Of a stretch of 64,000 nucleotides of DNA, positions 6,665 through 54,836 are shown one piece after another; within the stretch, counting starts at the first letter, position 1, and each line of letters opens with the position of its first letter. The DNA is from Acidobacteriota bacterium (GTDB taxonomy: Bacteria > Acidobacteriota > UBA6911 > RPQK01 > JAJDTT01), in contig CBDCJH010000002.1 of NCBI GenBank assembly GCA_965217775.1, positions 1,696,001 to 1,760,000 of the forward strand, written 5' to 3'. Both the position numbers and the translations under genes were made by a program. The notes below the pieces were generated by a model. It was not told where the DNA came from. It worked only from the letters and a program-made list of their open reading frames with translations, and made no database searches.

Positions 6665-9600
6665 CTAAGTATACAGGGTGACGGAGCTTTTCCCAAAAAG
6701 ATCTTCCACCGCAGTGACGAAGGAAGGAATCGGGTTGACGGCAAGCTCCTGGACGGGGATCAGTCGAATTCGATACGACTCCTGCTCGACCAGCTCGAAT
6801 TGCAGGGGGCACTTACCCGGGTGGCGGCTCACCAGATCATGGAGACCAGTGACCTTGTCGGTGTCTAGGGAGGGCAATGGGATGGTGATCCGCGCAGACT
6901 GGACGGCGCCGTTCCAGAGACTGTCCAGGGGGACCAGGTCGGAACAGAGGATGCGCATCTTGCCGCGGACGTCCGACTCGCACCGGCCGCGCAGCAACAC
7001 CGGCGGAGCCGACTCCAACAGGGATTGGCACCTGCGGTAGGCCTTGGGCCAGACCAGGACATCCACGCTCCCCGAGAGGTCCTCCAGGACGAAGGTCGCC
7101 ATGGCGTCCCCCTTGCGGGTCGTGAGCTGCTTGACCTCTGTGATCAACCCGCCAATCGAGAGCTCCCGCCCCCCCGTTTCCTCCGAAACCTCCCGCGCCT
7201 TGACGTCCGAGAAGCGCGCCAGCTCCGCTTGGTAGCCCTTGAGAGGGTGTCCCGTGACATAGTGGCCGAGTGCTTCCTTCTCATAGCGCCATTTCAGGTC
7301 GTCTGGCCATTCTGCTTCCGATTCCCTCGCCGGCGGTGCAGCCGCCACCGGTCCCATCCCCCGCTGAAAGAGATTCAACTGCCCGCTGATCCGGTCCTTT
7401 TGCGCCTTTTGCGCCCTTTCGATGGCTCGTTCCAGGTTCTCCAACAAGCCTCTTCGAGACCGCTTCAAGGAATCGAATGCTCCGGACTTGATCAACGCCT
7501 CCAGGACCCGTTTGTTGAGGGTCCGCAAGTCCACATGTTCCAGAAAATGGGAAAAGCTGGTGAAGGTCTTCACTTCGTCTCGACATGAGAGTATCGAACG
7601 AATGGCGGCCTCTCCCACGTTCCGTATGGCGGCGAGACCGAACTGGATACTCTCCCCGCGGGCCGAGAAGTGGAGAGTTCCACTATTGATGGTCGGTGGC
7701 AGAACCCGTATGCGCACGTCGCGGCACTCGTTCAGGTACTGGACCATCTTGTCGGTGTTGGAGATCTCGCTGGTCAGCAGGGCCGCCATGAACTGCACCG
7801 GATAGTGGCTCTTCAGATAGGCGGTCTGATAGGCCAGGATCGCATACGCGGTGGAGTGGCTCTTGTTGAAACCGTACCCCGCGAACTGCTCGATGAGATC
7901 GTAGATCTTTTGAGCTTTTTTGGAATCGATGTCCCGTTCCCGACAGCCCTCCAGGAACTTCTTCTTCTGGCCCTGCATGACCTTCTTCTTCTTCTTTCCC
8001 ATGGCCCGGCGGAGCAGATCGGCTTCACCCAGAGAGAAACCAGCCAATTTGCTGGCAATCTGCATGACCTGTTCCTGGTACACGATGACGCCATAGGTCT
8101 CTCGCAGGATTTCCTCCAACTCGGGCACTTCGTACCGGATTTTGACCTTGCCGTGCCGGCGCCCCACAAAGTCGTCGATCATCCCTCCCTGGATGGGACC
8201 GGGACGGTAGAGGGCATTCATGGCGATGAGGTCTTCGAAACGGCTGGGCTGCAGCTGTTTCAAGATTTCCCTCATCCCCCGGGACTCGAACTGGAAGATG
8301 CCGGTGGTTCGGCCCTCGCAAAACAGCCGGAAAGTATCCTCATCCTGGAGATTGATCTCATCCAGATTGATTTCCAGCTTCGACTGCTCTCGAATCTGCT
8401 CCAGGGTCTGTTCGATGACCGTCAGCGTGGTCAGCGCCAGGAAATCCATCTTGAGCAGCCCCAGCCGCTCCAGGTCGTTCATCGTGTATTGGGTAGTGAT
8501 TTCACCCTTGCTCGACTTGTACAAGGGGATGAGCTCAGTCAGCGGTCTTGGGGCAATGACGATACCGGCGGCGTGGGTGGACGCGTGCCGGGCCAGTCCT
8601 TCCAGGCGCTGAGCCACGGTCAGAAGCTGCTCGTAACGCTCATCGCCGGCTGTGAGGTCCCGGAGTTCCTTGACCGTCTCCAGAGACTTTTTCAAGGTGA
8701 CGTCAGGACCCGAGGGGACCAGGCGGGCGATGCGGTCAACCTCGCCGTAGGGAATGTTGAGGCCGCGCCCCACGTCCCGAATGGCTCCCCGGGCGGCCAT
8801 GGTTCCAAAGGTGATGATCTGACTGACGTTGTCGCGTCCGTACTTTTGGGTCACATAGTCGATGACCTGGCTCCGGCGATGCATGCAGAAGTCGATATCG
8901 ATGTCGGGTGGAGTGACCCGCTCCGGATTCAAGAATCGTTCGAAGAGTAGACCATACTGAAGCGGGTCCACATCGGTGATCTGCATGGCATAGGAGACCA
9001 GACTGCCGGCTGCCGATCCCCGCCCGGGACCTACGGCGATCCCCTGTTCCCGTGCGTATCTCATGAAATCCCAGACGATCAGGAAATATCCGGAAAATTT
9101 CATTTTCTGAATCATGGCGATTTCCTGATCCAGACGCTGGGAATACTGCTCGATTGAAGGGGCCGGCCCGTCCGAGCCCTGCTGCTGCTTCAAGGTCTCC
9201 ATCCGCCGGGAGAACCCCTCTCGAACCACGGACTCGAAGTAGGAATCCAACGTATTTTCAGCGGGAACTTCAAACTCCGGAAACACCGATCCGGAGTCTT
9301 GCAACCGGAACTCACACTGCTCGGCAACGGCCAGGGTGTTGGAAAGCGCTCCCGGGACGTGGCCGAAGAGTTGAGCCATCTGCTCCGGGGTCTTCAAGAA
9401 AAACTGATCGGTCCGGTAGCTCAGCCGGTTGGTGTCCTGGACCGTCTTTCCGGTCTGGATGCAAAGCAGGACATCGTGGGGAAAGGAGTCCTCCTGGGAG
9501 AGATAATGGCAGTCGTTGGTCGCGACCAACGGAAGATCCAGTTCCTTGGCCAGACTTACGATCCCGGTATTCACCGACTTCTGCGCTTCTATGCCGTGGT

Positions 9601-10132
9601 CCTGCAGCTCCAGGTAGAAATGATCTTTGCCGAAGATCTCCGAGAGTTCCCCCGCCTCTTTGCGCGCTTTCTGGTAGCGATCCTGGTGTAGATTCCAGGC
9701 CACGATCCCCTTGAGACAGGCCGAGAGTCCGATCAATCCTTCGCTGTGCTGCTCCAGCAACTCACGGTCGATGCGCGGCCGATAGTAGAATCCCTCCAGA
9801 TAACCCAGCGAGACGAGTTTGACCAGGTTCTGATAGCCCTTTTGATTCCGAGCCAGGAGCACCAGATGGTTGCTTCCATCCGACCGGCCCGACTTGACCG
9901 TTCGTCCGTCCCGGGCAACGTAAACCTCGCAACCGATAATGGGGTTGACCCCGGTTTTGACTCCCGCATCGTGGAACTGGATGGCTCCAAACAGATTGCC
10001 GTGATCCGTCAAGGCGATCGCCGGCATCTTCAGTTCAGACGCTCTCTTGAAGAGGGCGTCGATCTTGTTGGCTCCATCCAACAGGCTGAAATGGCTATGA
10101 ACGTGCAGATGGACAAATTCAGCTTGGCCCAT
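6665..10132 (-). CDS. dnaE: DNA polymerase III subunit alpha
   Basis: PHP domain (HLHVHSHFSLLDG), GPGRGSAAGS, PDIDIDF, KMDFL, YGFNKSHS, C-terminal OB fold; no intein. Confidence 0.97.
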   Translation of the reverse strand: MGQAEFVHLHVHSHFSLLDGANKIDALFKRASELKMPAIALTDHGNLFGAIQFHDAGVKTGVNPIIGCEVYVARDGRTVKSGRSDGSNHLVLLARNQKGYQNLVKLVSLGYLEGFYYRPRIDRELLEQHSEGLIGLSACLKGIVAWNLHQDRYQKARKEAGELSEIFGKDHFYLELQDHGIEAQKSVNTGIVSLAKELDLPLVATNDCHYLSQEDSFPHDVLLCIQTGKTVQDTNRLSYRTDQFFLKTPEQMAQLFGHVPGALSNTLAVAEQCEFRLQDSGSVFPEFEVPAENTLDSYFESVVREGFSRRMETLKQQQGSDGPAPSIEQYSQRLDQEIAMIQKMKFSGYFLIVWDFMRYAREQGIAVGPGRGSAAGSLVSYAMQITDVDPLQYGLLFERFLNPERVTPPDIDIDFCMHRRSQVIDYVTQKYGRDNVSQIITFGTMAARGAIRDVGRGLNIPYGEVDRIARLVPSGPDVTLKKSLETVKELRDLTAGDERYEQLLTVAQRLEGLARHASTHAAGIVIAPRPLTELIPLYKSSKGEITTQYTMNDLERLGLLKMDFLALTTLTVIEQTLEQIREQSKLEINLDEINLQDEDTFRLFCEGRTTGIFQFESRGMREILKQLQPSRFEDLIAMNALYRPGPIQGGMIDDFVGRRHGKVKIRYEVPELEEILRETYGVIVYQEQVMQIASKLAGFSLGEADLLRRAMGKKKKKVMQGQKKKFLEGCRERDIDSKKAQKIYDLIEQFAGYGFNKSHSTAYAILAYQTAYLKSHYPVQFMAALLTSEISNTDKMVQYLNECRDVRIRVLPPTINSGTLHFSARGESIQFGLAAIRNVGEAAIRSILSCRDEVKTFTSFSHFLEHVDLRTLNKRVLEALIKSGAFDSLKRSRRGLLENLERAIERAQKAQKDRISGQLNLFQRGMGPVAAAPPARESEAEWPDDLKWRYEKEALGHYVTGHPLKGYQAELARFSDVKAREVSEETGGRELSIGGLITEVKQLTTRKGDAMATFVLEDLSGSVDVLVWPKAYRRCQSLLESAPPVLLRGRCESDVRGKMRILCSDLVPLDSLWNGAVQSARITIPLPSLDTDKVTGLHDLVSRHPGKCPLQFELVEQESYRIRLIPVQELAVNPIPSFVTAVEDLFGKSSVTLYT

Positions 10133-10214
10133 ATCGCTTAATTCCTGTGCGTTGGCAGCAAACCCGATATCTGGAGGGGTCCGGGTCCCGCTCCGTATCC
10201 AAGGCAGGGTCTGA

Positions 10215-11747
<1,533 letters not shown>

Positions 11748-14330: not shown

Positions 14331-14334
14331 ATAG

Positions 14335-14492
14335 GAGCCTGCGCCGCAGAAATTGATCTACTGCGAAAGCGGTGAATCGGTCCATATTTCCTCGATTTCT
14401 CGGCGAATAGAACGACTATGCACCTCCAAATCGAGAAGATCTGGCCTCGATTCCCCACTTTCTCGCTACGATCATTCCTACGGCGCAGACTC
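14335..14492 (+). mobile_element. MITE family B, copy 1 (158 bp foldback)
   Basis: TIRs GAGCCTGCGCCGCAG / CTACGGCGCAGACTC; flanks ATAG and CTAG; inverted copy at 54436-54594. Confidence 0.85.
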
Positions 14493-14987
14493 CTAGCCTT
14501 TTCTTTTTACGGCGCTGCCGCGACTGAGTGAGAGGCATCCGGTACGGTGCACGTCTCGCACCCCGTACACGCGCATGTTCTGGAGAAAACCGTTGATCTT
14601 ATCCGGATTTCCCGTGACCTCGAAAACACAGCTCTGAGGACTGGCGTCGACCACGCGCGCCCGAAAGACCTTGGACAACTCCAAGATCTCCCTCCGACTG
14701 GATTCCGTGACGCGCACCCGGATCAGGGCCATCTCGCGGGCCATGTGGACTCGCGGATTGTATGGAATCACCTTGATGACATCGATCAGCTTGTTCAACT
14801 GCTTGATGACCTGCTCGGTGCCCGGCACGTCCGTTTTTGTGGAAAGGGTAACGAGCGACATGGTGGGGTCGGAGGTCGGAGCGACGTTCAGCGTCTCGAT
14901 ATTGTAGCCTCGCTGACTGAACAGCCCCACGACCCGGGCCAGGACACCCGATCTGTTTTCGACCAGTAAGGAAAGCAACTGAACCAT
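14493..14987 (-). CDS. ilvN: Acetolactate synthase small (regulatory) subunit
   Basis: VENRSGVLARVVGLFSQRGYNIETL, EQVIKQLNKLIDVIKV, REMALIRV. Confidence 0.9.
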   Translation of the reverse strand: MVQLLSLLVENRSGVLARVVGLFSQRGYNIETLNVAPTSDPTMSLVTLSTKTDVPGTEQVIKQLNKLIDVIKVIPYNPRVHMAREMALIRVRVTESSRREILELSKVFRARVVDASPQSCVFEVTGNPDKINGFLQNMRVYGVRDVHRTGCLSLSRGSAVKRKG

Positions 14988-46892: not shown

Positions 46893-47831
46893 TCACGGGG
46901 AAACGGACCGGTCGGACGATCGGGGCGGGAGTCCCGCCGCCTCTACGATTTCGGCCACCAACTCTTCCTGCCGATAGGCCATGATGTGGACTCCGCTGAT
47001 TCCGGGAATCTCCCGCGCCTCGCGGATGATCTCGACGCAGATCTGCATGCCCTCGCGGCGCTGACGGTTGCCGGGAACTCCCCTGAGACGGCGGATCACC
47101 TCATCCGGGATCACCACGCCGGGAATGTTGTTCCGGATCCATTGCGCCGCCTTGGCCGAGCGGAGGGGTCCGACGCCCAGCAGAAAGAAGACCTTCTCGT
47201 GCAAACCCAACTCCCCGACGGACTTCATGAAACGCCGGAGTCTGGGCAGGTCGAAACAGTACTGGCTCTGGATGAAGTCCGCCCCCGCTTCGATCTTCTT
47301 CATCAGCCGGAACGGACGGTAATCGAAGGGAGGAACGAAAGGATTGCTGGCGGCCCCCAGAAAAATCCGGGGGTTGGATTCCAGCTTCCTGCCGCTCAGG
47401 AAGCGGCCACCGTCCCGGAGCAGGCGGGCCGTTCTCAACAGAGTCATGCAATCCAGATCGAAGACCGGCTTGGCGTCCGGATGGTCGCCCACGCCCACGC
47501 CGTCGCCCGTCAGGCACAACACGTTCCGGATCCCCAGGGCCGCAGCTCCCAGCAGGTCTCCCTGAATCGCGATCCGGTTCCGGTCCCGGCAGGCGACCTG
47601 AAGCACCGGCTCGTAGCCTGCCTTCACCAGCAGGGAACAGACGGCCACGCTGGACATGTGGACATGGGCCCCGGAAGCATCGGTGGCGTTGATGGCATCA
47701 CATACCGGAGCCAGGACCAGCGCCCTTTCGCAGACCGTATCGGGATCCGCGGTGTCGGGGGAATTGATCTCGGCGGTGACGGCGAATCCGCCCGCGCGAA
47801 GCACCCGCTCCAGCCTGGAGCCAGACTTCAT
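46893..47831 (-). CDS. metF: Methylenetetrahydrofolate reductase
   Basis: CRDRNRIAIQ, LCLTGD, KKIEAGADFIQSQ, GVHIM; start ATG 47831. Confidence 0.9.
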   Translation of the reverse strand: MKSGSRLERVLRAGGFAVTAEINSPDTADPDTVCERALVLAPVCDAINATDASGAHVHMSSVAVCSLLVKAGYEPVLQVACRDRNRIAIQGDLLGAAALGIRNVLCLTGDGVGVGDHPDAKPVFDLDCMTLLRTARLLRDGGRFLSGRKLESNPRIFLGAASNPFVPPFDYRPFRLMKKIEAGADFIQSQYCFDLPRLRRFMKSVGELGLHEKVFFLLGVGPLRSAKAAQWIRNNIPGVVIPDEVIRRLRGVPGNRQRREGMQICVEIIREAREIPGISGVHIMAYRQEELVAEIVEAAGLPPRSSDRSVSP

Positions 47832-47836
47832 GGGGG

Positions 47837-48289
47837 TCACTGCTTCCAATGGGACTTCGCCTTTCCGGCATCCGAGAAGTGGTTGACCCAGGCGGACGAT
47901 CCCTGGAGGTCGTGACTCAGCGGCGGAAGCACGTGCAGGATCTCGGATCCGAAGTGGGGCATCTTTCCGGATCGTTCCCAAGCCTGCACCCAGACGCACG
48001 GCATTTCGGGAACCACCTCGCAATGTCCGTTCGGCCGCACCCCTCCGCAGGGTCCGTTGCGGAGATTCTTGGGGCAGGTCATGGGACAGGTCATCCCGGT
48101 GCTGTGCAGGACGCACTGTCCGCACATGCGGCAGTCGAACACGGCGCCTTTGGTCAATCGCTCCGCCGGAATCAGGAGCCGTTCGATCCGGCTCCCGGGT
48201 TTGAGCGACGACCGGAACCAACCAAGAATCTTAAGACTGATCAGATAGATCGACTCTAATACTTGAGGATGGTTCTGAAGGAATCTCAC
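47837..48289 (-). CDS. metV: MetV-like Cys-rich MTHFR partner (MTHFR_C domain)
   Basis: CRMCGQC...CPMTCPKNLRNGPCGG...CEV...CVW; GTG start at 48289. Confidence 0.8.
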   Translation of the reverse strand: MRFLQNHPQVLESIYLISLKILGWFRSSLKPGSRIERLLIPAERLTKGAVFDCRMCGQCVLHSTGMTCPMTCPKNLRNGPCGGVRPNGHCEVVPEMPCVWVQAWERSGKMPHFGSEILHVLPPLSHDLQGSSAWVNHFSDAGKAKSHWKQ

Positions 48290-48308
48290 GGTTTTCCCCT
48301 GCGCTCGT

Positions 48309-49946
48309 TCAACCTGTAGGACCCGAATCCAACACCGCCGGCATGGCCTGGAACAGACATCCTTCCACAAAAATATCGAAGAAATCTTCGGTCGTCTCCA
48401 ACTCGACGTGTTCAATACGCCTGACCATCTCTTCCAGGCGGCGCCTGAGGGTCCGGCTGGTCAACATGAGCGTGGCTCCCTCAAGCGCGCTGTTTCCCAC
48501 CTTGGCGACGCGGTCTTGGGGAAGCGGCGGGATAAACCCGATGGACATGGCGTTGTCCACGTTGACGTAGTTGGCGAAGCCTCCCGCCAGATAGAGCCGC
48601 TTGAGCTTGACCGGCGAGATCCCGTACTTCCTGAGAACGATCCACTGACCCGAGTAATTGGCCGCCTTCGCCTGTGCCAGGGCGCTGATGTCGGCTCGGG
48701 ACAAGAAAATCCCGCGTTCGCCCGGAATGCTGAACCGGTCCAGCCCTCCCGCAAGAACGCCGAGATAGTTCATGTCGTCTACCCGGAGCAACTCTGCCAG
48801 GAGGTCGATCAAGCCCGAACCGCAGATCCCCTCCGGCGTGGCTCCACCGATGGTCCTCCAGATCACCTCTCCGTTCCGGAGTTCGACCGACTCGATGGCG
48901 CCGTCGTAACCGGGCATGCCGAAGGTGATCTCACCACCCTCGAATGCGGGTCCTGCCGGGCAGGAGGCGGCCATCATGCCATGGCGGTTGCCGACCACCA
49001 CTTCCGTGTTGGTTCCCACATCGACCAACATGACCGCATCTTCTTCCTCATCCATGCCGACGGCCAAAAGGTCGGCAGCCACGTCGGCGCCGACGTGACA
49101 ACCGATCAAAGGCCCGCCGTAGACATTGGCGTCGGGATGGACTCTCAGTCCCAGATCCCGAGCCGGGAAATTCAGGAGGGTGTCGGCTCTGTCACCCCGT
49201 TCCATTTCCAGTTGGGTGATGGACTGGTACGGTCTTTCGCCGATGGTCTGGATGTCGAGGCCGAAAAACAGATCTCGCATGGCGGCGTTGCCCACGATGA
49301 CGACTTCGTAGATCTGGCGCCGCGGCACCCCTGTCATCCGGCTCAACTCACGGATCTCGTAGTTGAGTCCGGCAATCACCGAGTTCCGGAGCTCCCCCCG
49401 ATAGGGTCCGCCGTCATAGGAAATCCGGCGCATGATGTCGCTGCCGCCGAATCTCTGCGGGTTTTCGAACGAACCGGTGTGCAGGACCGCTCCGCTTCCG
49501 AGATCCACCAGATTCAGGGCGACGGTCGTCGTCCCCAGGTCTACGGCAAGGCCGTAGATCCCGCCCCGATGGGAGTCGATGATATTGCCATCATAGACGA
49601 CGTTGCCTCCCTGAAGCCGTGTCATGGGCTCGATGGGAGCCTGGCGCCGAACGGTTTGGGTCAGGATCTTGGGACGGCGATGCAGCAGGGCAAATTCGAT
49701 GGTTGCGTCGGCATCCAGGACCCGAGCTTGACAGGCAAGCCGATAGTCGTTGCGGAGGAACTCTTCGGCTTTCGAGGCGGAGGTCAGGGCTTCCCCACCC
49801 CGGACGATCCGGACGATGCACTCGTGACACTCTCCGCTACGGCGACAGGAGGTCGGGACCCGCACCTGAAGGTCGTCGGCATAGTCGAAAATGGTCCTGT
49901 CTGGAACCAGGTCCAGCTTGCGATTACCGTAGTGGAGGGGGGACAT
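48309..49946 (-). CDS. Reductive activator of corrinoid proteins (RACE; [2Fe-2S] plus ASKHA/DUF4445)
   Basis: N-terminal SCRRSGECHEC...RLACQ, DLGTTT, DVGTNTE, AGPAFEG, GICGSG, LAGGF. Confidence 0.9.
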   Translation of the reverse strand: MSPLHYGNRKLDLVPDRTIFDYADDLQVRVPTSCRRSGECHECIVRIVRGGEALTSASKAEEFLRNDYRLACQARVLDADATIEFALLHRRPKILTQTVRRQAPIEPMTRLQGGNVVYDGNIIDSHRGGIYGLAVDLGTTTVALNLVDLGSGAVLHTGSFENPQRFGGSDIMRRISYDGGPYRGELRNSVIAGLNYEIRELSRMTGVPRRQIYEVVIVGNAAMRDLFFGLDIQTIGERPYQSITQLEMERGDRADTLLNFPARDLGLRVHPDANVYGGPLIGCHVGADVAADLLAVGMDEEEDAVMLVDVGTNTEVVVGNRHGMMAASCPAGPAFEGGEITFGMPGYDGAIESVELRNGEVIWRTIGGATPEGICGSGLIDLLAELLRVDDMNYLGVLAGGLDRFSIPGERGIFLSRADISALAQAKAANYSGQWIVLRKYGISPVKLKRLYLAGGFANYVNVDNAMSIGFIPPLPQDRVAKVGNSALEGATLMLTSRTLRRRLEEMVRRIEHVELETTEDFFDIFVEGCLFQAMPAVLDSGPTG

Positions 49947-50034
49947 GACAGCGCAACACCCTGTTCCAGCGCTCCGCGGGCGCGATTGCCGGTTCCTCTA
50001 ACGAAAGGGGCCGCAGGATCCGGTCAGCCGACAG

Positions 50035-50054
50035 CCTACGGCGCAGACTCCTAG
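50035..50054 (+). repeat. Terminal remnant of MITE family B
   Basis: CCTACGGCGCAGACTCCTAG, identical to 14477-14496; the CTAG contains the stop codon of the 88-aa ORF. Confidence 0.7.
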
Positions 50055-50317
50055 ACTTCCCAGGCATCCCGATAATTCAGATCGTCACTTCCGGTACAGA
50101 GAGGCAACCCTTCGGAACCGGAACGCCTGGACTGGTTTCGGCACCCGAAACGGGCGGTGCAGCAATCCCGGGCATTCTTGTAGGGACACCGCCACTTGGA
50201 TACGAGATTGGCAGTCTCGCCGATCTGTTGGTAGATCTCCCAGAGGCGATCCATGCTGGCCTTGAGTTTCGCCTTGTCGACAGGTTGGAAATTCCCAGGG
50301 ACGTCTGTTCGTGGCAC
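50051..50317 (-). CDS. Small Cys-rich hypothetical protein (88 aa)
   Basis: Co-oriented within the cluster; Cys at 44, 52, 53, 59 and 74. Confidence 0.7.
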   Translation of the reverse strand: MPRTDVPGNFQPVDKAKLKASMDRLWEIYQQIGETANLVSKWRCPYKNARDCCTARFGCRNQSRRSGSEGLPLCTGSDDLNYRDAWEV

Positions 50318-50340
50318 TGCAAGTCCGTCGAGGATCGGTC

Positions 50341-51108
50341 CTAGGAGGATTCGGAGACAGCCTCCTGAGGTATTTCCTGCCCGATACCCAGGAGTTCCTT
50401 GGCCTTGTCCACACAGTCAATGGCGTCCTTGCCATAGCGGTCGGCCCCCATGTCGTCCGCGAATTCCTGAGTCACCGGAGCTCCGCCCACCATGGTGCTG
50501 ACCACATCTCTCAGACCGGCATCCTCCAAGGCCTGGATGGTTCGTCCCATGTTGGGCATGGTCGTCGTCAGCAGGGCCGACATTCCGATGATCTGGGGTT
50601 CGTATTCGAACACCGAATCGACAAACTCGTCCGGCTTGGTATCGACACCCAGATCGTGCACGACGAAACCGGCTCCCCGGAGCATCATGATGCACAGGTT
50701 TTTCCCGATATCGTGGAGGTCACCCTTGACCGTTCCCATGACCACGGTGCCCATGGGTGGAATATCGGAAGCGGATAGTATGGGTTCGATGTGCGCCATC
50801 CCCGCTTTCATGGCGCGGGCTGAAATCAGAACCTCGGGAACGAAAATGATGTTGTCCCGGAATTTGATCCCCACCAGCGCCATGCCGGCAATCAGTCCGT
50901 CATCCAACACCGTATTGGCGGCGTAATCGGAGTCCAGGGCCTCCCTCGTGAGGCGGTCGACCTCGTGCTGGTTGCCTATGATCAAGGCATAGCTGATGTC
51001 TTGCATCAAAGGATCGGCGTTTCGGAAGAGCGACTTGATGTGCTCTCGCTCGTGCCGCCGCGCCACGTGGCGGAGTTCCCTGGTCAGGCCCTCATTGATA
51101 TTCGACAT
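50341..51108 (-). CDS. Corrinoid (B12-binding) protein, MtbC/MtaC-like
   Basis: Cap domain (GM..VG..F....IFVPEV), GTVKGDLHDIGKN, MSALLTTT, VGGAP; ATG after AGGTGG. Confidence 0.92.
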   Translation of the reverse strand: MSNINEGLTRELRHVARRHEREHIKSLFRNADPLMQDISYALIIGNQHEVDRLTREALDSDYAANTVLDDGLIAGMALVGIKFRDNIIFVPEVLISARAMKAGMAHIEPILSASDIPPMGTVVMGTVKGDLHDIGKNLCIMMLRGAGFVVHDLGVDTKPDEFVDSVFEYEPQIIGMSALLTTTMPNMGRTIQALEDAGLRDVVSTMVGGAPVTQEFADDMGADRYGKDAIDCVDKAKELLGIGQEIPQEAVSESS

Positions 51109-51167
51109 ACTGGAAAGACCACCTGGATCACCGAATTTCAAAGACGCGTAGACGAACTAAGGGAGAA

Positions 51168-51197
51168 ATTAAACCTTTTCGGGTCGAGGTTTGTCAA
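51168..51197 (-). promoter_or_regulatory. Internal sigma70-type promoter
   Basis: TTGACA-N18-TTTAAT in the intergenic gap upstream of the corrinoid gene. Confidence 0.55.
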
Positions 51198-51224
51198 ACC
51201 AGCCGGCGTGCGGTACAGGGCCCT

Positions 51225-52271
51225 TCAGACCCCGGTCAACCGGCCATCCCGCCAAGCCTGAATGTAGTTCATGCAGAAATCGTCCCGGCCCAAAAGCATG
51301 TCCCGGGCCAAGCCGACTCGTTCCGAATCCAGGTCCAGGGCGAATACGTCCCGCACGCGATTCTGGACGGGATCCATGATGGCGGCGTCGATGCCGGATT
51401 CCAGGCTCAGGTGAATGAAGGTCGCGTTGATGAGCTTCCGATTGGGAAGGCCGAAGGAAACGTTGCTCAACCCGCCGGTGACGTGCACGTCATTGCCGAA
51501 GATTCGCCGGACCTCCTCGACGGCATCCAGAAAATGACGCCCGAATTCGGGCGAAACCGATATCGGGAAGACGAGACAGTCGATGTACACGTCGTCCAGA
51601 GGAAATCCCCGTCTCACGACCGCCTCCATGACCTGTTCCACGTTGGAGACGCGGTCGTCCGAGCTCTCCGGCATTCCCTCCTTTCCGGCGGCCGTCACAA
51701 TCATGCGGGCATCGTTTTCCTGGACCAGGTCCAGGGTTTCCAGTCGCTCCAGAGCGACGGAATTGACCAGAGGACGGTCCGATCTGCGGGTGTGGGCAAC
51801 CAACCCCGCGGCGATGATCTCCGCGTTGGAAGAATCGATGCTGAGAGGCAGCACCGTCATTTCCTGGACTCTCTCCACCAGCCAGGTCATGGCTCGCTTC
51901 TGAATCTTGATGTCGTAGGAGATCTCGTCGACGTTCAGATCGAGGAAATGGGCGCCGGCGGCTTCCTGGCGGCGGACCTCGAATTCGATGTAGGCGGTCC
52001 CCTCCGCCTCCTCCACGGGATCTCCGCTGATCCCCTTCCGGACAGCAATCATGAAATGCTTGATCTGACCTTGCTCGTAGGGCTGCGTCTTCTTGAAACT
52101 CTCGGGCACCCGAAGGTACCGGCGCTCACCGGGACTGGGATCGAAGAAGACGGCCTCTGCTCCGTCGGGCGCCGTCTCAGTCCGCTTGCCATTGCGCAAG
52201 ACGATGCGAGTCGTATGAATGTTCTCGCCGATGATGATCAGACCGCTGGGGTCATGGACGAGCTTTGACAT
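51225..52271 (-). CDS. Pterin-binding methyltransferase (AcsE / MetH folate-domain-like)
   Basis: IIIGENI, GAHFLDLNV, LSIDS, VNS, GLSNVSFGLP, AIMDP; start ATG 52271. Confidence 0.88.
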   Translation of the reverse strand: MSKLVHDPSGLIIIGENIHTTRIVLRNGKRTETAPDGAEAVFFDPSPGERRYLRVPESFKKTQPYEQGQIKHFMIAVRKGISGDPVEEAEGTAYIEFEVRRQEAAGAHFLDLNVDEISYDIKIQKRAMTWLVERVQEMTVLPLSIDSSNAEIIAAGLVAHTRRSDRPLVNSVALERLETLDLVQENDARMIVTAAGKEGMPESSDDRVSNVEQVMEAVVRRGFPLDDVYIDCLVFPISVSPEFGRHFLDAVEEVRRIFGNDVHVTGGLSNVSFGLPNRKLINATFIHLSLESGIDAAIMDPVQNRVRDVFALDLDSERVGLARDMLLGRDDFCMNYIQAWRDGRLTGV

Positions 52272-52291
52272 GGAACACCCGGTTGACCGCT

Positions 52292-53329
52292 TCAGGCGTA
52301 ATGATCCCGGCACCAGTCCTTGACCGCCCGCGGAATCTCGATGAGGTTTTCCAGTTTGGTCGCCAGGGGAATGGCACACTCTGGGGAAATCATATCGACG
52401 CCCGCCGCCATGCATTCGTTGACGGCCGCTCGGACCTCCTCCGGCCCTCGGCTATAGAGGAGTTCCGGGTTGTTCAGATTCCCCACCAGGCGGATCCGCC
52501 CGGAAGCGATCTTCATGGCTTCGGCAGGGTTGTTCTTGGAATCGAAGTGGAAGCAGGCCATCCCGGACTGCGCGATGTAGTCGAGGCGGTCCAGCGTCTG
52601 GCCGCAGATATGGAGAATGAGGGGACACGGGATTCGCTCCCGCATCTCCTTGTGGATCTCCAACAGGAACCTGCGGTAGTACTCACCGCTCACCAGATCG
52701 CCGGTGGCATGGTCCGGAAAGGTGAGGGCGTCGGCGCCCGCTTCGATCTGGGCGAGGGAAAACGCAACCGAGATTTCCTTGAGCCGATCCAGGCAGAGCT
52801 TGGTCATCCCCGGATCATCGATGCTCATGAGCAGAAACTTCTCCACGCCGAAGACGTGATAGGCCAGCGTCCAAGGCCCCATGGCTTTGCCGATGACGGC
52901 GACCTCGTCTCCATATTCCTTTTTCAGGATACGCAGCGCGTCCAGGACGCAGACGTTGTCCGGATGGGTCAGAAAATCCTTCGGCATATGGATGTCGTCC
53001 GGCCCCGACCAGATCGGGTTGTTCATCCGTACCGTGGGCCAGTTGTCCTTGATCTCCCACTGCATGTCACATCCCAGGGCGGAAGACTCCTGGATGATGG
53101 TGAAGACCGGCATGATGCAGTCGAAGCCCAACTGGGTGTATCCCGTTGCCGCCAAGCGCGCGTTGAGCTCGGCGTCACGGCACGCGTCCGGAAACGGAGC
53201 GTCCACCATGTCCATGAGTTCCACGGTGGCGATATTGGTCGGATTGCAGACCGGGGGCCGATCCACCGGCTTGCCGGCCAGCGCGTTCATCACTCGCTCT
53301 CTGGGGGTCATGGTCTCCACGAATGGCAT
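52292..53329 (-). CDS. MtaA/CmuA-family (UroD-fold) Zn methyltransferase
   Basis: MTPRERV...VDRPPV, GPWTLA, EAGAD, Zn ligands HICG and PECAI, GNL. Confidence 0.88.
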   Translation of the reverse strand: MPFVETMTPRERVMNALAGKPVDRPPVCNPTNIATVELMDMVDAPFPDACRDAELNARLAATGYTQLGFDCIMPVFTIIQESSALGCDMQWEIKDNWPTVRMNNPIWSGPDDIHMPKDFLTHPDNVCVLDALRILKKEYGDEVAVIGKAMGPWTLAYHVFGVEKFLLMSIDDPGMTKLCLDRLKEISVAFSLAQIEAGADALTFPDHATGDLVSGEYYRRFLLEIHKEMRERIPCPLILHICGQTLDRLDYIAQSGMACFHFDSKNNPAEAMKIASGRIRLVGNLNNPELLYSRGPEEVRAAVNECMAAGVDMISPECAIPLATKLENLIEIPRAVKDWCRDHYA

Positions 53330-53347
53330 TCCATCTGCTCCTTGGGA

Positions 53348-54022
53348 TCAGAGAGGGCTGAAGCCCGCGGTTCCGGTGGTGAGCTGACCTCTTTGGGCCG
53401 AACTCTCCAACATGTTCTCCACGGCGCTGATGTTGCGGGAGAATGGGAACAGGAGCCGGACCAACGGCTCGTGACGGTGTCCACAGTTGAAGGAGACACC
53501 GAGGTTTCCCGCCTGCTCCATCTCGCCGTACTTTCGAAAGCCCATGGTAATGGCACGCAGGCGAAAAGGAGCGTTACGCGCCTCGCCCTGAGCCGAGACC
53601 TGGTAGACCCAACGATTCTCGGAGTGGTGAGGCGTGAGCTTCAAAGTCAATGGACTGCGCGTATCCCGAAGCACCATCTCTCCCGTGGGATGAGAAAAAT
53701 TCGGATCCTTTTCCACCGCCTGCGGCATCAGAAACTTGAGCGGTCTCGAATGAAGTACTCCACAGGGAAATCGAACCTGGTTCCTGCTACCCTCCACCGC
53801 AACCAAGCCACCCAAATTGCAAAGTTGGTCTCGGATTCTCTCGATCCGGTCCTCGACCCCCGCCTTCTTGCTGTAGGTCCAGACGGTCAAAAGGCCGTCT
53901 TTCTCGTAGAGACCGATAGTGATGTCGTGGAAATGCGGGTCCATGGAAACCAGTTCGACGCAGCGCCCGTAGCGCTCGATCATCTCCTCCACCTGGGAAA
54001 GCTGACCTTCCCTACCCTTCAT
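53348..54022 (-). CDS. Hypothetical protein with a duplicated FxCGxxH motif (224 aa)
   Basis: ATGA overlap with the upstream gene; motifs VRFPCGVLH and VSFNCGHRH. Confidence 0.75.
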   Translation of the reverse strand: MKGREGQLSQVEEMIERYGRCVELVSMDPHFHDITIGLYEKDGLLTVWTYSKKAGVEDRIERIRDQLCNLGGLVAVEGSRNQVRFPCGVLHSRPLKFLMPQAVEKDPNFSHPTGEMVLRDTRSPLTLKLTPHHSENRWVYQVSAQGEARNAPFRLRAITMGFRKYGEMEQAGNLGVSFNCGHRHEPLVRLLFPFSRNISAVENMLESSAQRGQLTTGTAGFSPL

Positions 54023-54396
54023 GGCGAATTGCTCCCGGATGTTGAAGGGACCGGATCGTCACCGATCCAGCGCTCAAGCGCGCCGGGCCGCTCATCCCGC
54101 TGACCGGCACGATGGAGCCGGCAAATTCGGGCCGCCAAGTCTTCAGGGAGTCCATGATTGAATCGTCCCGCCCAAGCTTGGGCGAGCTGGCGTGGATCTC
54201 CCGAGTCCCGACCCTGATCCACCCACTCCCAACCCTCCAAATAAGCATCGCTCCCCATGCTCCCTTCGAACATGGCGACGGCGTCCACCGCTTCCTGGAA
54301 CCGGTGGTCCAGCGGTTCCGAAACTCGATCGCCACCGGATTCGACCTGGACCTGGACGGGGATCTCTTTCCAGTAGAGGACTCTGATATTGGCCAC
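54019..54396 (-). CDS. Small protein resembling the so-called virulence factor family (PF13769)
   Basis: VLYWKEIPVQVQV...RFQEAVDAVAM...DAYLEGW; GGGAG before GTG 54396; family recognised from memory. Confidence 0.75.
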   Translation of the reverse strand: MANIRVLYWKEIPVQVQVESGGDRVSEPLDHRFQEAVDAVAMFEGSMGSDAYLEGWEWVDQGRDSGDPRQLAQAWAGRFNHGLPEDLAARICRLHRAGQRDERPGALERWIGDDPVPSTSGSNSP

Positions 54397-54435
54397 GATT
54401 TGGGCTCCCACAAGAGGCAATCCAGCCTGGACTAG

Positions 54436-54594
54436 GAGTCTGCGCGGTAGGAATGATCGTAGCGAGAAAGCGGGGAATCGAGGCCAGATTTTCTCGATTT
54501 TGAGGCGCATAGTCGTTCTATTCGCCGAGAAATCGGGGAAATATGGACCGATTCTACCGCTTTCGCAGTAGATCAATTTCTGCCGCGCAGGCTC
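54436..54594 (-). mobile_element. MITE family B, copy 2 (159 bp)
   Basis: Reverse complement of 14335-14492 with a few changes; CTAG duplicated on both sides. Confidence 0.88.
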
Positions 54595-54836
54595 CTAGCG
54601 TCAGAACCGGATCTACGGGACGTCTCCCCTGCCAAGTCGGTCTCGGCGGCCATTTCTCGGGGGCGGAGGTGACCTTCTCCGTCCCACGGACAAGTCAGGC
54701 TACACCAGCGTGGACACCCTGTAAAGCCCGCCGGCCCCGGGTACTCCCGGCCCTGTGGCTGGCGCCGGCCGGGCTTTTCACCGGCTCCGATACACCTTTC
54801 TTGACTTGGTCCGAGCCACTTCCGCAAAATGTGGTC

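Follow-up and report, generated by a model that had tools for sequence, protein, structure and literature searches.

Hubs that connect the breakdown of osmolytes with methionine synthesis through vitamin B12 were shown in marine Proteobacteria only in 2025. According to the account of the Ruegeria knock-outs by Mausz et al. 2025 (PMC12478193), methionine synthesis and betaine demethylation both depend on MtgC and MtgD, which form a dual hub. In the same account the donor enzyme is MtgB, a member of the MttB family, the homocysteine enzyme MtgE (PF02574) is usually encoded elsewhere, and MetF2, which oxidises methyl-tetrahydrofolate (methyl-THF), is the Ruegeria protein most induced on betaine. 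In Phaeobacter, the fitness data presented by Price et al. 2018 (PMC5764234) revealed a methionine synthase split into three parts and served by a RamA-like activator, together with which DUF1638 was required. A locus of related design has been analysed in an Acidobacteriota bacterium (GenBank assembly GCA_965217775.1), within a stretch of 64,000 nucleotides (contig CBDCJH010000002.1, positions 1,696,001 to 1,760,000 of the forward strand) that is referred to below as the window. Between positions 46893 and 54396 the minus strand of the window carries nine tightly packed, co-oriented genes. They encode, in transcription order, a PF13769 protein, a protein of 224 amino acids (aa), an MtaA/CmuA-family enzyme of the UroD fold, a pterin-binding methyltransferase, a corrinoid protein, an 88-aa protein, the corrinoid activase RACE, MetV and MetF.

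The operon is on balance probably, with somewhat better than an even chance, a split MetH-like corrinoid hub to which a UroD-type thiol or thioether (or selenol) port has been added, loading methyl groups from a methyl-sulfur compound. In such a hub a single B12 carrier protein, kept in the Co(I) state by the ATP-dependent RACE, would be visited by separate methyltransferases. The pterin-binding enzyme would exchange methyl groups with THF, and MetF and MetV would link methyl-THF to methylene-THF. A stand-alone homocysteine enzyme, encoded about 172 kb away, would accept the methyl group to give methionine. The third spoke would be the UroD enzyme, loading the corrinoid from some small methyl-sulfur compound of wide occurrence, such as methylmercaptopropionate, methanethiol or dimethylsulfide, and methionine or the folate pool would be where the methyl group from this spoke ends. 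For the 224-aa and 88-aa proteins, a role as obligate and probably metal-binding accessories of the UroD spoke may be proposed.

The 224-aa protein, the MtaA-like UroD enzyme, the corrinoid protein, the 88-aa protein and RACE form a conserved add-on, termed here the cassette, which recurs in metagenome-assembled genomes (MAGs) labelled as six lineages, in each case with the 224-aa gene upstream of that for the UroD enzyme. A hub with a thiol or thioether port is preferred to a linear pathway because this cassette is constant while its partner spokes differ. Eighty genome loci were found through the 224-aa family and scored by tblastn with the window proteins, several of them being cut by contig ends. 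A subfamily of the 224-aa family at about 30% identity, from MAGs labelled Terriglobia, Rhodospirillales, Gemmatimonadota and Pirellulales, gave another 80 loci from metagenomes, of which 34 under 6 kb were dropped and 46 kept (counts for each gene are listed in Table 1). The UroD enzyme accompanies the 224-aa protein in 79/80 and 46/46 of these loci; in all 46 metagenome loci its gene directly follows the 224-aa gene, and the enzyme is 64-72% identical to that of the window. Among 301 sampled Acidobacteriota genomes, a sample that includes two flagged as unpublished, members of the 224-aa family and UroD orthologues (E<=1e-30) were detected in exactly the same 11. The first-pass annotation had proposed that the uncharacterised genes belong with the methyl-transfer module, and this co-occurrence bears it out. 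The 88-aa gene stands directly after the corrinoid gene in 63/80 genome and 34/46 metagenome loci. Wherever an Acidobacteriota locus has the pterin enzyme, MetF and MetV are there as well, and one typical metagenome order is 224-aa, UroD, corrinoid, 88-aa, RACE, MetF, MetV, pterin enzyme, homocysteine enzyme, PF13769. Content and order thus recur in 80 genome loci and 46 metagenome loci of at least 6 kb, and the arrangement of the operon is not due to chance.

The operon may also be transcribed in relatives of the host. A relative 95-99% identical to it was detected in four sponge metatranscriptome runs from one study, where contigs of the RNA libraries bridge the RACE/88-aa/corrinoid, the UroD/224-aa/PF13769 and the pterin/UroD junctions. 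Some MetF/MetV bins are left uncovered, and nothing is inferred from that gap. These contigs fit expression as a polycistronic unit without proving it. The host is a sponge-associated marine acidobacterium with a genome of 6.43 Mb in two contigs (97.9% complete), and the public loci nearest to the operon belong to uncultured Acidobacteriota MAGs. Its genome encodes a haem-copper oxidase (COX1).

The UroD enzyme scored 269.5 bits against TIGR01463 mtaA_cmuA (cut-off 235.4) and 262.3 bits against NF004889 (cut-off 244). It could be aligned with MtaA of Methanosarcina mazei (4AY7) over 326 residues (E 1.4e-48), its LHICG and PECA motifs falling in register with LHICG and PGCG of MtaA. The zinc ligands assigned by this alignment, H240, C242 and C318, are invariant in 33/33 orthologues, across which the mean column identity is 84%; in MAG loci of other lineages the enzyme remains 64-85% identical to that of the window, whereas the 224-aa protein drops to about 30%. 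The UroD protein is therefore, on these alignments, strikingly constrained. According to Kountz and Balskus (PMC10418091), His-Cys-Cys ligands mark S- and Se-methyltransferases, and O-demethylases swap Cys for carboxylates. Because its zinc ligands are His-Cys-Cys, a thiolate or selenolate is the most likely type of substrate for the UroD enzyme. The aryl O-demethylase MT1 type (Odm/Mtv/Mto) was rejected, as the carboxylate ligand is missing and His-Cys-Cys is kept in 33/33. Neither the MtaA equivalog, with coenzyme M as the thiol (NF040654, 227 bits against a cut-off of 400), nor the MtbA equivalog (NF041608, 199.7 bits against 600) was matched at its cut-off.

The first-pass annotation had described the operon as a methyl-transfer system of methyltransferase, corrinoid protein, pterin methyltransferase, RACE and MetV/MetF, with the UroD enzyme on the substrate side. 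Domains and homology agree with this, and the UroD enzyme is the only candidate for that side; from the substrates proposed with it (methyl halides and methylated S, N or O compounds), methylated sulfur fits best through the His-Cys-Cys site. Three PF01208 matches are present in the window genome, one in the operon and two elsewhere; the match with the highest score resembles HemE. A tblastn search of plasmids with the UroD enzyme returned 38 records, all below 60% identity (22-29% among the 30 listed) and none annotated as CmuA. In one related locus (L032:16056-18055), beside the cassette and just after RACE, a second, divergent UroD gene with the ligands H-T-D is accompanied by its own corrinoid protein. 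This O-demethylase-like contrast is in support of the zinc-site criterion. A second corrinoid match was observed in another locus (L048, 16975-17733). With a second pair of UroD enzyme and corrinoid protein, the island would gain another spoke.

Among described enzymes, the soluble coenzyme M methyltransferases of methanogens (MtaA 4AY7/4AY8, MtbA, MtsA and MtpA) share the UroD fold, and the identity to MtaA, counted from the alignment, is about 37%. MtpA, an MtaA-family enzyme of Methanosarcina, is said to be a methylmercaptopropionate:cob(I)alamin methyltransferase (bioRxiv 10.1101/548461). MtaA and the window enzyme have in common the aligned His-x-Cys...Cys ligands, a cognate corrinoid protein and an activase. 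The window system differs from the methanogen enzymes in the aerobic oxidase of its host and in its folate and homocysteine partners, and coenzyme M is not expected there. The type 1 mlp clusters, as presented in PMC10418091, likewise combine a bacterial MtaA-like His-Cys-Cys enzyme with a corrinoid protein and RACE; action on methyl-S or methyl-Se compounds has been proposed for them in that source, and they often come without a folate methyltransferase, like the Dehalococcoidia version of the present cassette. The window system is unlike them in its homocysteine and/or folate enzymes and its two further conserved proteins. Membership in type 1 mlp needs at least Mlp2 and Mlp3 and an obligate anaerobe, and was rejected for the operon, which has one UroD gene in a genome encoding COX1.

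These clusters raise the alternative of methyl-selenium salvage, in which methylselenol or dimethylselenide would be converted to selenide, a function already suggested for type 1 mlp clusters in anaerobes. The His-Cys-Cys site also fits selenium, and an Mlp2 enzyme, according to PMC10418091, used selenide better than sulfide in vitro. SelD is encoded in the window genome (298.5 bits, above the cut-off, contig C2, 653998-654918). Yet the type 1 mlp clusters have two to three UroD paralogues, lack folate enzymes and are restricted to obligate anaerobes, whereas here a single UroD gene stands beside folate genes in a genome with a haem-copper oxidase, and the neighbour scan revealed no selenium gene linked to the cluster. 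Selenium salvage is accordingly considered very improbable. The SelD match sits in an open frame of 756 aa and may be fused to another domain.

For the folate half of the operon, relatives are found in Proteobacteria. In corrinoid clusters of Azoarcus, Sinorhizobium meliloti and Terrarubrum (tblastn, plasmid and chromid records), PF13769 homologues lie beside MetV-MetF, in a set comprising a corrinoid protein, DUF1638, PF13769, MetV, MetF, a pterin-binding methyltransferase and a RamA-like ASKHA protein; in Sinorhizobium an MttB-family gene is nearby. The window MetF is, by its alignment, an ortholog of the MetF beside the pterin methyltransferase in these Mtg-type clusters. The folate half as a whole (PF13769, pterin methyltransferase, corrinoid protein, RACE, MetV and MetF) is, with the identities given in Table 1, homologous to the MtgC/MtgD/RamA/MetF2 hub. 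PF13769, a single-copy gene in the window genome, had been counted among the special components of an undescribed system; its presence in the proteobacterial clusters does not uphold this.

Compared with the Mtg hub of Ruegeria pomeroyi, Phaeobacter inhibens and Sinorhizobium meliloti, the window operon likewise has a separate corrinoid protein, a pterin-binding methyltransferase, which is bidirectional in the Mtg hub, and RamA/RACE. Both have an adjacent MetF with MetV and a PF13769 gene in the cluster. The gene for the homocysteine subunit, in the window system a candidate one, often lies outside the cluster, many of the genomes are without canonical MetH, and the corrinoid protein is shared by a third methyltransferase, which in the window system is predicted to act on the substrate side. 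The substrate-side enzyme is an MtaA-like UroD zinc enzyme in the window, whereas it is an MttB-family (PF06253) betaine methyltransferase in the Mtg hub. Unlike that hub, the window system adds the 224-aa and 88-aa proteins and is without DUF1638. Searches of the window genome gave no match to PF06253 (MttB) or to PF07796 (DUF1638). The lineages also differ, the Mtg hub being proteobacterial and the present system belonging to Acidobacteriota, Dehalococcoidia/SAR202 and others. The system is thus an Mtg or split-MetH type hub in its corrinoid, pterin, RACE, MetF/MetV and PF13769 parts. The new part is the cassette, with a UroD enzyme resembling the soluble coenzyme M methyltransferases and two new protein families. 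No description of the cassette was found in the literature covered, which did not extend to the supplements of PMC12478193 (Dataset S2) and PMC10418091, where some of the lineages may be listed.

A partner for homocysteine is a component that the operon itself does not provide. The first-pass annotation had reported that neither a homocysteine-binding (MetH/BHMT) domain nor an MttB, MtaB or MtmB enzyme is present. This holds at the locus, but three stand-alone PF02574 genes (frames of 336-382 aa) are found elsewhere in the window genome. Full-length MetH was not detected in that genome, where no long frame carries PF02574 or PF02310. The MetH activation domain (PF02965), found in 251/301 of the sampled Acidobacteriota, was detected in 0/8 sampled genomes of the window family, namely the window genome and 7 others. 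Four B12-binding matches occur in the window genome, only that of the operon combining cap and B12 domains, and of two pterin-binding genes one is in the operon and the other is FolP-like. In 53/80 related loci, essentially those of Dehalococcoidia/SAR202, a 297-aa PF02574 gene lies between the PF13769 and 224-aa genes. Its best match in the window genome is 57.5% identical and is encoded at the distance given above (contig C2, 1922399-1923250), as a single gene among unrelated neighbours. Other Acidobacteriota homologues of this window-genome protein are at most 48% identical, except in its own genus and in one further genome, G141. The purely catabolic reading of the first-pass annotation is not supported: its own counter-case, a split methionine synthase whose homocysteine-binding subunit is encoded elsewhere, largely applies in view of this distant candidate subunit, the lack of MetH in the family and the operon's possession of the only cap-plus-B12 protein and the only pterin methyltransferase that is not FolP-like. 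In one related locus (L050, ~7544-8821) the PF13769 frame reads without a stop into a homocysteine methyltransferase, which may be a natural fusion. Five genes resembling the C-terminal part of MetE (PF01717; frames of 352-459 aa) are also present in the window genome and are possible cobalamin-independent methionine synthases of the 'core-MetE' type.

Three genome contrasts separate the spokes from one another. The acidobacterial genome G141 has neither the 224-aa gene nor the UroD gene and is also without the MetH activation domain; its MetV, pterin enzyme (58%) and corrinoid protein (72%) are encoded side by side (contig C1, 2901000-2920900, L202, ~8525-11048), with no 88-aa or RACE genes nearby, and it carries the same homocysteine enzyme (82% identity). 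The split-synthase half therefore exists alone, and the UroD part is an add-on. In 4/5 Dehalococcoidia genomes a pterin-binding domain occurs nowhere but within canonical MetH (1176-1253 aa); the cluster there therefore joins only the UroD and homocysteine enzymes on one corrinoid protein. This version implies a putative methyl exchange between a sulfur compound and homocysteine. Conversely, two Acidobacteriota genomes (G195 and G245) combine the cassette, the pterin enzyme and MetVF with a canonical MetH, whose own N-terminal domain is their only PF02574 match, no stand-alone homocysteine gene being present. Their gene content implies a predicted exchange of methyl groups between folate and the substrate compound. 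In the window's genus the folate and the homocysteine partners are both present, and MetH is absent.

G195 and G245 speak for a dedicated catabolic demethylase, the alternative that the first-pass annotation had put forward. In it methyl groups would pass from CH3-X to the corrinoid, to CH3-THF and to CH2-THF for energy or C1 units, with no role in methionine synthesis. Chloromethane degradation (CmuA/CmuB/MetF2/PurU) and the O-demethylases (Odm/Mtv/Mto) follow such a scheme, with MT1, a corrinoid protein, a pterin-binding MT2 and oxidation of methyl-THF by a dedicated MetF. The window operon has the same MT1-corrinoid-MT2-MetF logic and matches their architecture, with separate genes for the methyltransferase and corrinoid parts that are fused in CmuA. 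A divergent GntR/FCD regulator in 24/46 metagenome loci and linked PurU in 7/46 also favour catabolism. So does MetF, which is 62-63% identical to the MetF beside MtgD and whose Ruegeria counterpart, MetF2, is the one most induced by betaine. Against the demethylase stand the absence of MetH throughout the window family, together with the operon's possession of the genome's only complete B12 carrier and non-FolP-like pterin enzyme, the homocysteine gene inside the cluster in the 53 genome loci and in 18/46 metagenome loci, and the Dehalococcoidia versions, which are without pterin enzyme, MetF and MetV. In addition, His-Cys-Cys would imply a thioether donor, from which transfer to THF is uphill. 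The catabolic route fits G195 and G245; as a general account of the cassette it is rather unlikely.

Energetics bear on the direction of flow. Moving the methyl group of methyl-THF to a thiol is downhill by about 30 kJ/mol, and transfer from thioether to thioether is near neutral. The UroD enzyme might accordingly act in the acceptor direction, methylating a thiol or sulfide at the expense of methyl-THF, a second B12-dependent S-methylation, resembling that of methionine synthase, that would make a methylthio metabolite. Besides these energetics, MtaA, the closest solved relative, works in that way, and the constant company of MetF/MetV and the pterin enzyme in Acidobacteriota loci would suit it. 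The Dehalococcoidia clusters without a pterin enzyme would, however, require the homocysteine enzyme to run in reverse from methionine, and no candidate acceptor pathway was linked to the cluster by neighbour clustering. S-methylation is for these reasons a distinctly unlikely function.

Several observations weigh against the hub with a methyl-sulfur port. By analogy with Mtr, about 30 kJ/mol would have to be overcome when a thioether passes its methyl group to THF, a step that would need to be pulled by MetF. In G195 and G245 the cassette cannot be part of a split methionine synthase, and 5/11 of the cassette-bearing Acidobacteriota genomes lack a close orthologue of the homocysteine enzyme (E<=1e-60), three of them having only a relative at 40-41% and two, G195 and G245, only the MetH domain. 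That the distant homocysteine enzyme partners the operon's corrinoid protein is inferred from homology. The GntR/FCD regulator and PurU point to an inducible, donor-side catabolic use in the lineages concerned. Clustering of the neighbours of related loci and of the window flanks revealed no conserved transporter, sulfur enzyme or catabolic neighbour. The evidence from RNA consists of assembled contigs from one study, which may include DNA. More generally, the functions of all the operon proteins are assigned from sequence and context, the biochemistry and genetics coming from other systems.

The two proteins without a known family may be specific to the UroD spoke. The 224-aa protein has the invariant residues C21, C87, H91, C180 and H184 and a conserved C-terminal tail, RGQ(L/M)TTGT. 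The FxCGxxH motif noticed at first reading is indeed present, and occurs twice (C87/H91 and C180/H184), its residues being invariant in 53 sequences; the subfamily at about 30% identity keeps these four and lacks C21 and the tail. An AlphaFold2 model (predicted local distance difference test, pLDDT, 87.2; predicted template modelling score, pTM, 0.82) shows two similar predicted beta-beta-beta-alpha-beta-alpha domains, and the two halves of the protein align weakly (E 0.008), in register with the two CGxxH motifs. Foldseek against the PDB gave no convincing relative of the model (best E 0.02), a wide scan with VIA-align reached at best Z 6.4, over residues 112-200 only, and the ESM Atlas returned no usable match. 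A profile search of 1.84 billion representative proteins detected 253 members of the family (E<=0.001), and among the best 150 of these 253 matches no fused form longer than 276 aa was found. The 88-aa protein has four invariant Cys in the pattern RCPYK..CTA.FGCR.Q..C.G.D.L.YR.AW. Because of their conserved Cys and His residues, metal binding is suggested for both proteins.

These residues, together with the aerobic oxidase of the genome, have also suggested that the UroD, 224-aa and 88-aa proteins are a device for the protection, loading or regulation of an O2-sensitive corrinoid protein in aerobes. They would replace DUF1638, which is present in the proteobacterial clusters and absent from the window genome. 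The 224-aa family was, however, rejected as a form of DUF1638 (PF07796), to which it is unrelated (hhalign probability 0.1%, E 0.53, 53 against 3 sequences). The UroD enzyme keeps a complete zinc site of catalytic type and scores above the MtaA/CmuA cut-off, and G141 has the split-synthase half without the 224-aa, UroD and 88-aa genes. There is, in view of this, little chance that the three proteins serve only the corrinoid protein in this way.

A bolder and tentative proposal, which is held to be improbable on the whole, concerns the sulfur cycle. Visscher and Taylor reportedly inferred a cobalamin-type methyltransferase activity for dimethylsulfide from physiology in 1993. According to PMC6548844, the proposed aerobic enzyme of this type was still unidentified in 2019. 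The cassette may be the cobalamin-dependent methyl-sulfur methyltransferase of aerobic bacteria, acting on dimethylsulfide, methanethiol or methylmercaptopropionate and handing the methyl group on to homocysteine or folate without further carriers. In that case the 224-aa and 88-aa proteins would be a new pair of metal-binding partners, thanks to which an enzyme dependent on Co(I) could function under oxic conditions inside SAR202, Gemmatimonadota, soil bacteria and sponge symbionts.

For the preferred explanation, the split hub with a methyl-sulfur port, the same design as in the marine Proteobacteria would extend to abundant and mostly uncultured lineages: deep-ocean SAR202, sponge Acidobacteriota, and MAGs labelled Gemmatimonadota, Rhodospirillales, Pirellulales and Terriglobia. 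The hub here carries a methanogen-type zinc thiol methyltransferase instead of a betaine enzyme. If its port handles methyl-sulfur compounds, the cassette would serve as a genetic marker of a step in marine and soil sulfur cycling to which no gene is assigned, and the known B12 demand of these bacteria would be wider. As a defined set of five proteins, the cassette is also amenable to reconstitution.

Family assignments of the operon proteins (Table 1) were made by Pfam and NCBIfam profile searches, which confirm the nine co-oriented genes much as they were first described.

Table 1. Genes of the operon in transcription order, with profile evidence, identity to the Sinorhizobium/Azoarcus cluster proteins and occurrence in related loci
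Protein	Window position	Strand	Length	Profile evidence and remarks	Identity to Sinorhizobium/Azoarcus proteins	Genome loci	Metagenome loci
PF13769 protein ('virulence factor' domain; Virulence_fact)	54019..54396	-	125 aa	57.8 bits, cut-off 25; GTG start	38-46%	59/80	19/46
224-aa protein, two tandem alpha/beta domains	53348..54022	-	224 aa	no Pfam/NCBIfam family			
MtaA/CmuA-family UroD-fold corrinoid methyltransferase	52292..53329	-	345 aa	PF01208, 228.7 bits		79/80	46/46
Pterin-binding (methyl-THF:corrinoid) methyltransferase, MtgD-like	51225..52274	-	349 aa	PF00809, 75.3 bits	32-33%	33/80	14/46
Corrinoid protein, B12 cap and B12-binding domain	50341..51108	-	255 aa	PF02607 and PF02310	44-46%	67/80	35/46
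88-aa four-Cys protein	50051..50317	-	88 aa	no Pfam/NCBIfam family		63/80	34/46
RACE/RamA-type ATP-dependent corrinoid reductive activase	48309..49946	-	545 aa	PF00111, PF17651 and PF14574	34-35% (ASKHA proteins)	48/80	34/46
MetV, Cys-rich, like the C-terminal domain of methylenetetrahydrofolate reductase (MTHFR)	47837..48289	-	~150 aa	PF12225, 92.7 bits	56-59%	23/80	9/46
MetF, methylene-THF reductase	46893..47831	-	312 aa	PF02219, 104 bits	62-63% (299 residues)	23/80	10/46

The gaps between the genes, in transcription order, are -4, 18, 17, 116, 23, 104, ~19 and 5 nucleotides (nt), the first reflecting a 4-nt overlap of the PF13769 stop with the ATG of the 224-aa gene. The pterin-binding enzyme scored 202 bits against PRK07535, under the cut-off of 259. 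RACE is composed of an N-terminal 2Fe-2S Fer2 domain, a RACo middle domain and a RACo C-terminal domain. The corrinoid gene has an alternative TTG start at 51141, and MetV probably starts at the GTG at 48289. The operon is flanked, on the other strand or convergently, by housekeeping genes: MutS, glycosyltransferases, a sodium:alanine symporter, XdhC, Sua5, SpoU and MgsA. An Rfam scan of the window and 8 related loci detected no riboswitch, neither of the S-adenosylmethionine nor of the cobalamin type, and promoter and terminator scans gave signals at chance level.

Between the operon start and xdhC lies a repeat of 167 nt (54432-54599) that resembles a miniature inverted-repeat transposable element (MITE), with terminal inverted repeats complementary at 17/19 positions. 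A second copy is present in the window at ~14332-14496, and at least 40 copies with 93-100% identity occur in the genome (82 candidates, 40 scored). RNA-library contigs cover the repeat at a depth of 220-320 with many different flanks, and some contig joints skip it, corresponding to an empty site in relatives. Longer starts of the PF13769 gene (54576, TTG frame) and of xdhC (54543) fall inside the repeat. The start of the PF13769 gene at 54396, as first annotated, is preferred because the longer TTG frame enters this multi-copy element. At the other end of the window, positions 1-370 hold the 3' end of a 23S rRNA gene and a complete 5S rRNA gene.

Some further genes were observed around the cassette in related loci. 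Small DUF4268 (17/80) or DUF433 (20/80) genes lie between the 224-aa and UroD genes in many Dehalococcoidia loci (e.g., L043:9770-10729; L057:12895-13356; L075:10423-11082); they resemble insertions of a mobile or toxin-antitoxin type by which the cassette is split. RACE is followed by a gene for a D-2-hydroxyacid dehydrogenase in 25/80 genome and 6/46 metagenome loci (L085:15123-16871; L122:11135-12151). A ferredoxin-NADP-reductase-like gene is found nearby in 9/80 genome loci, and its product is a possible electron source for RACE.

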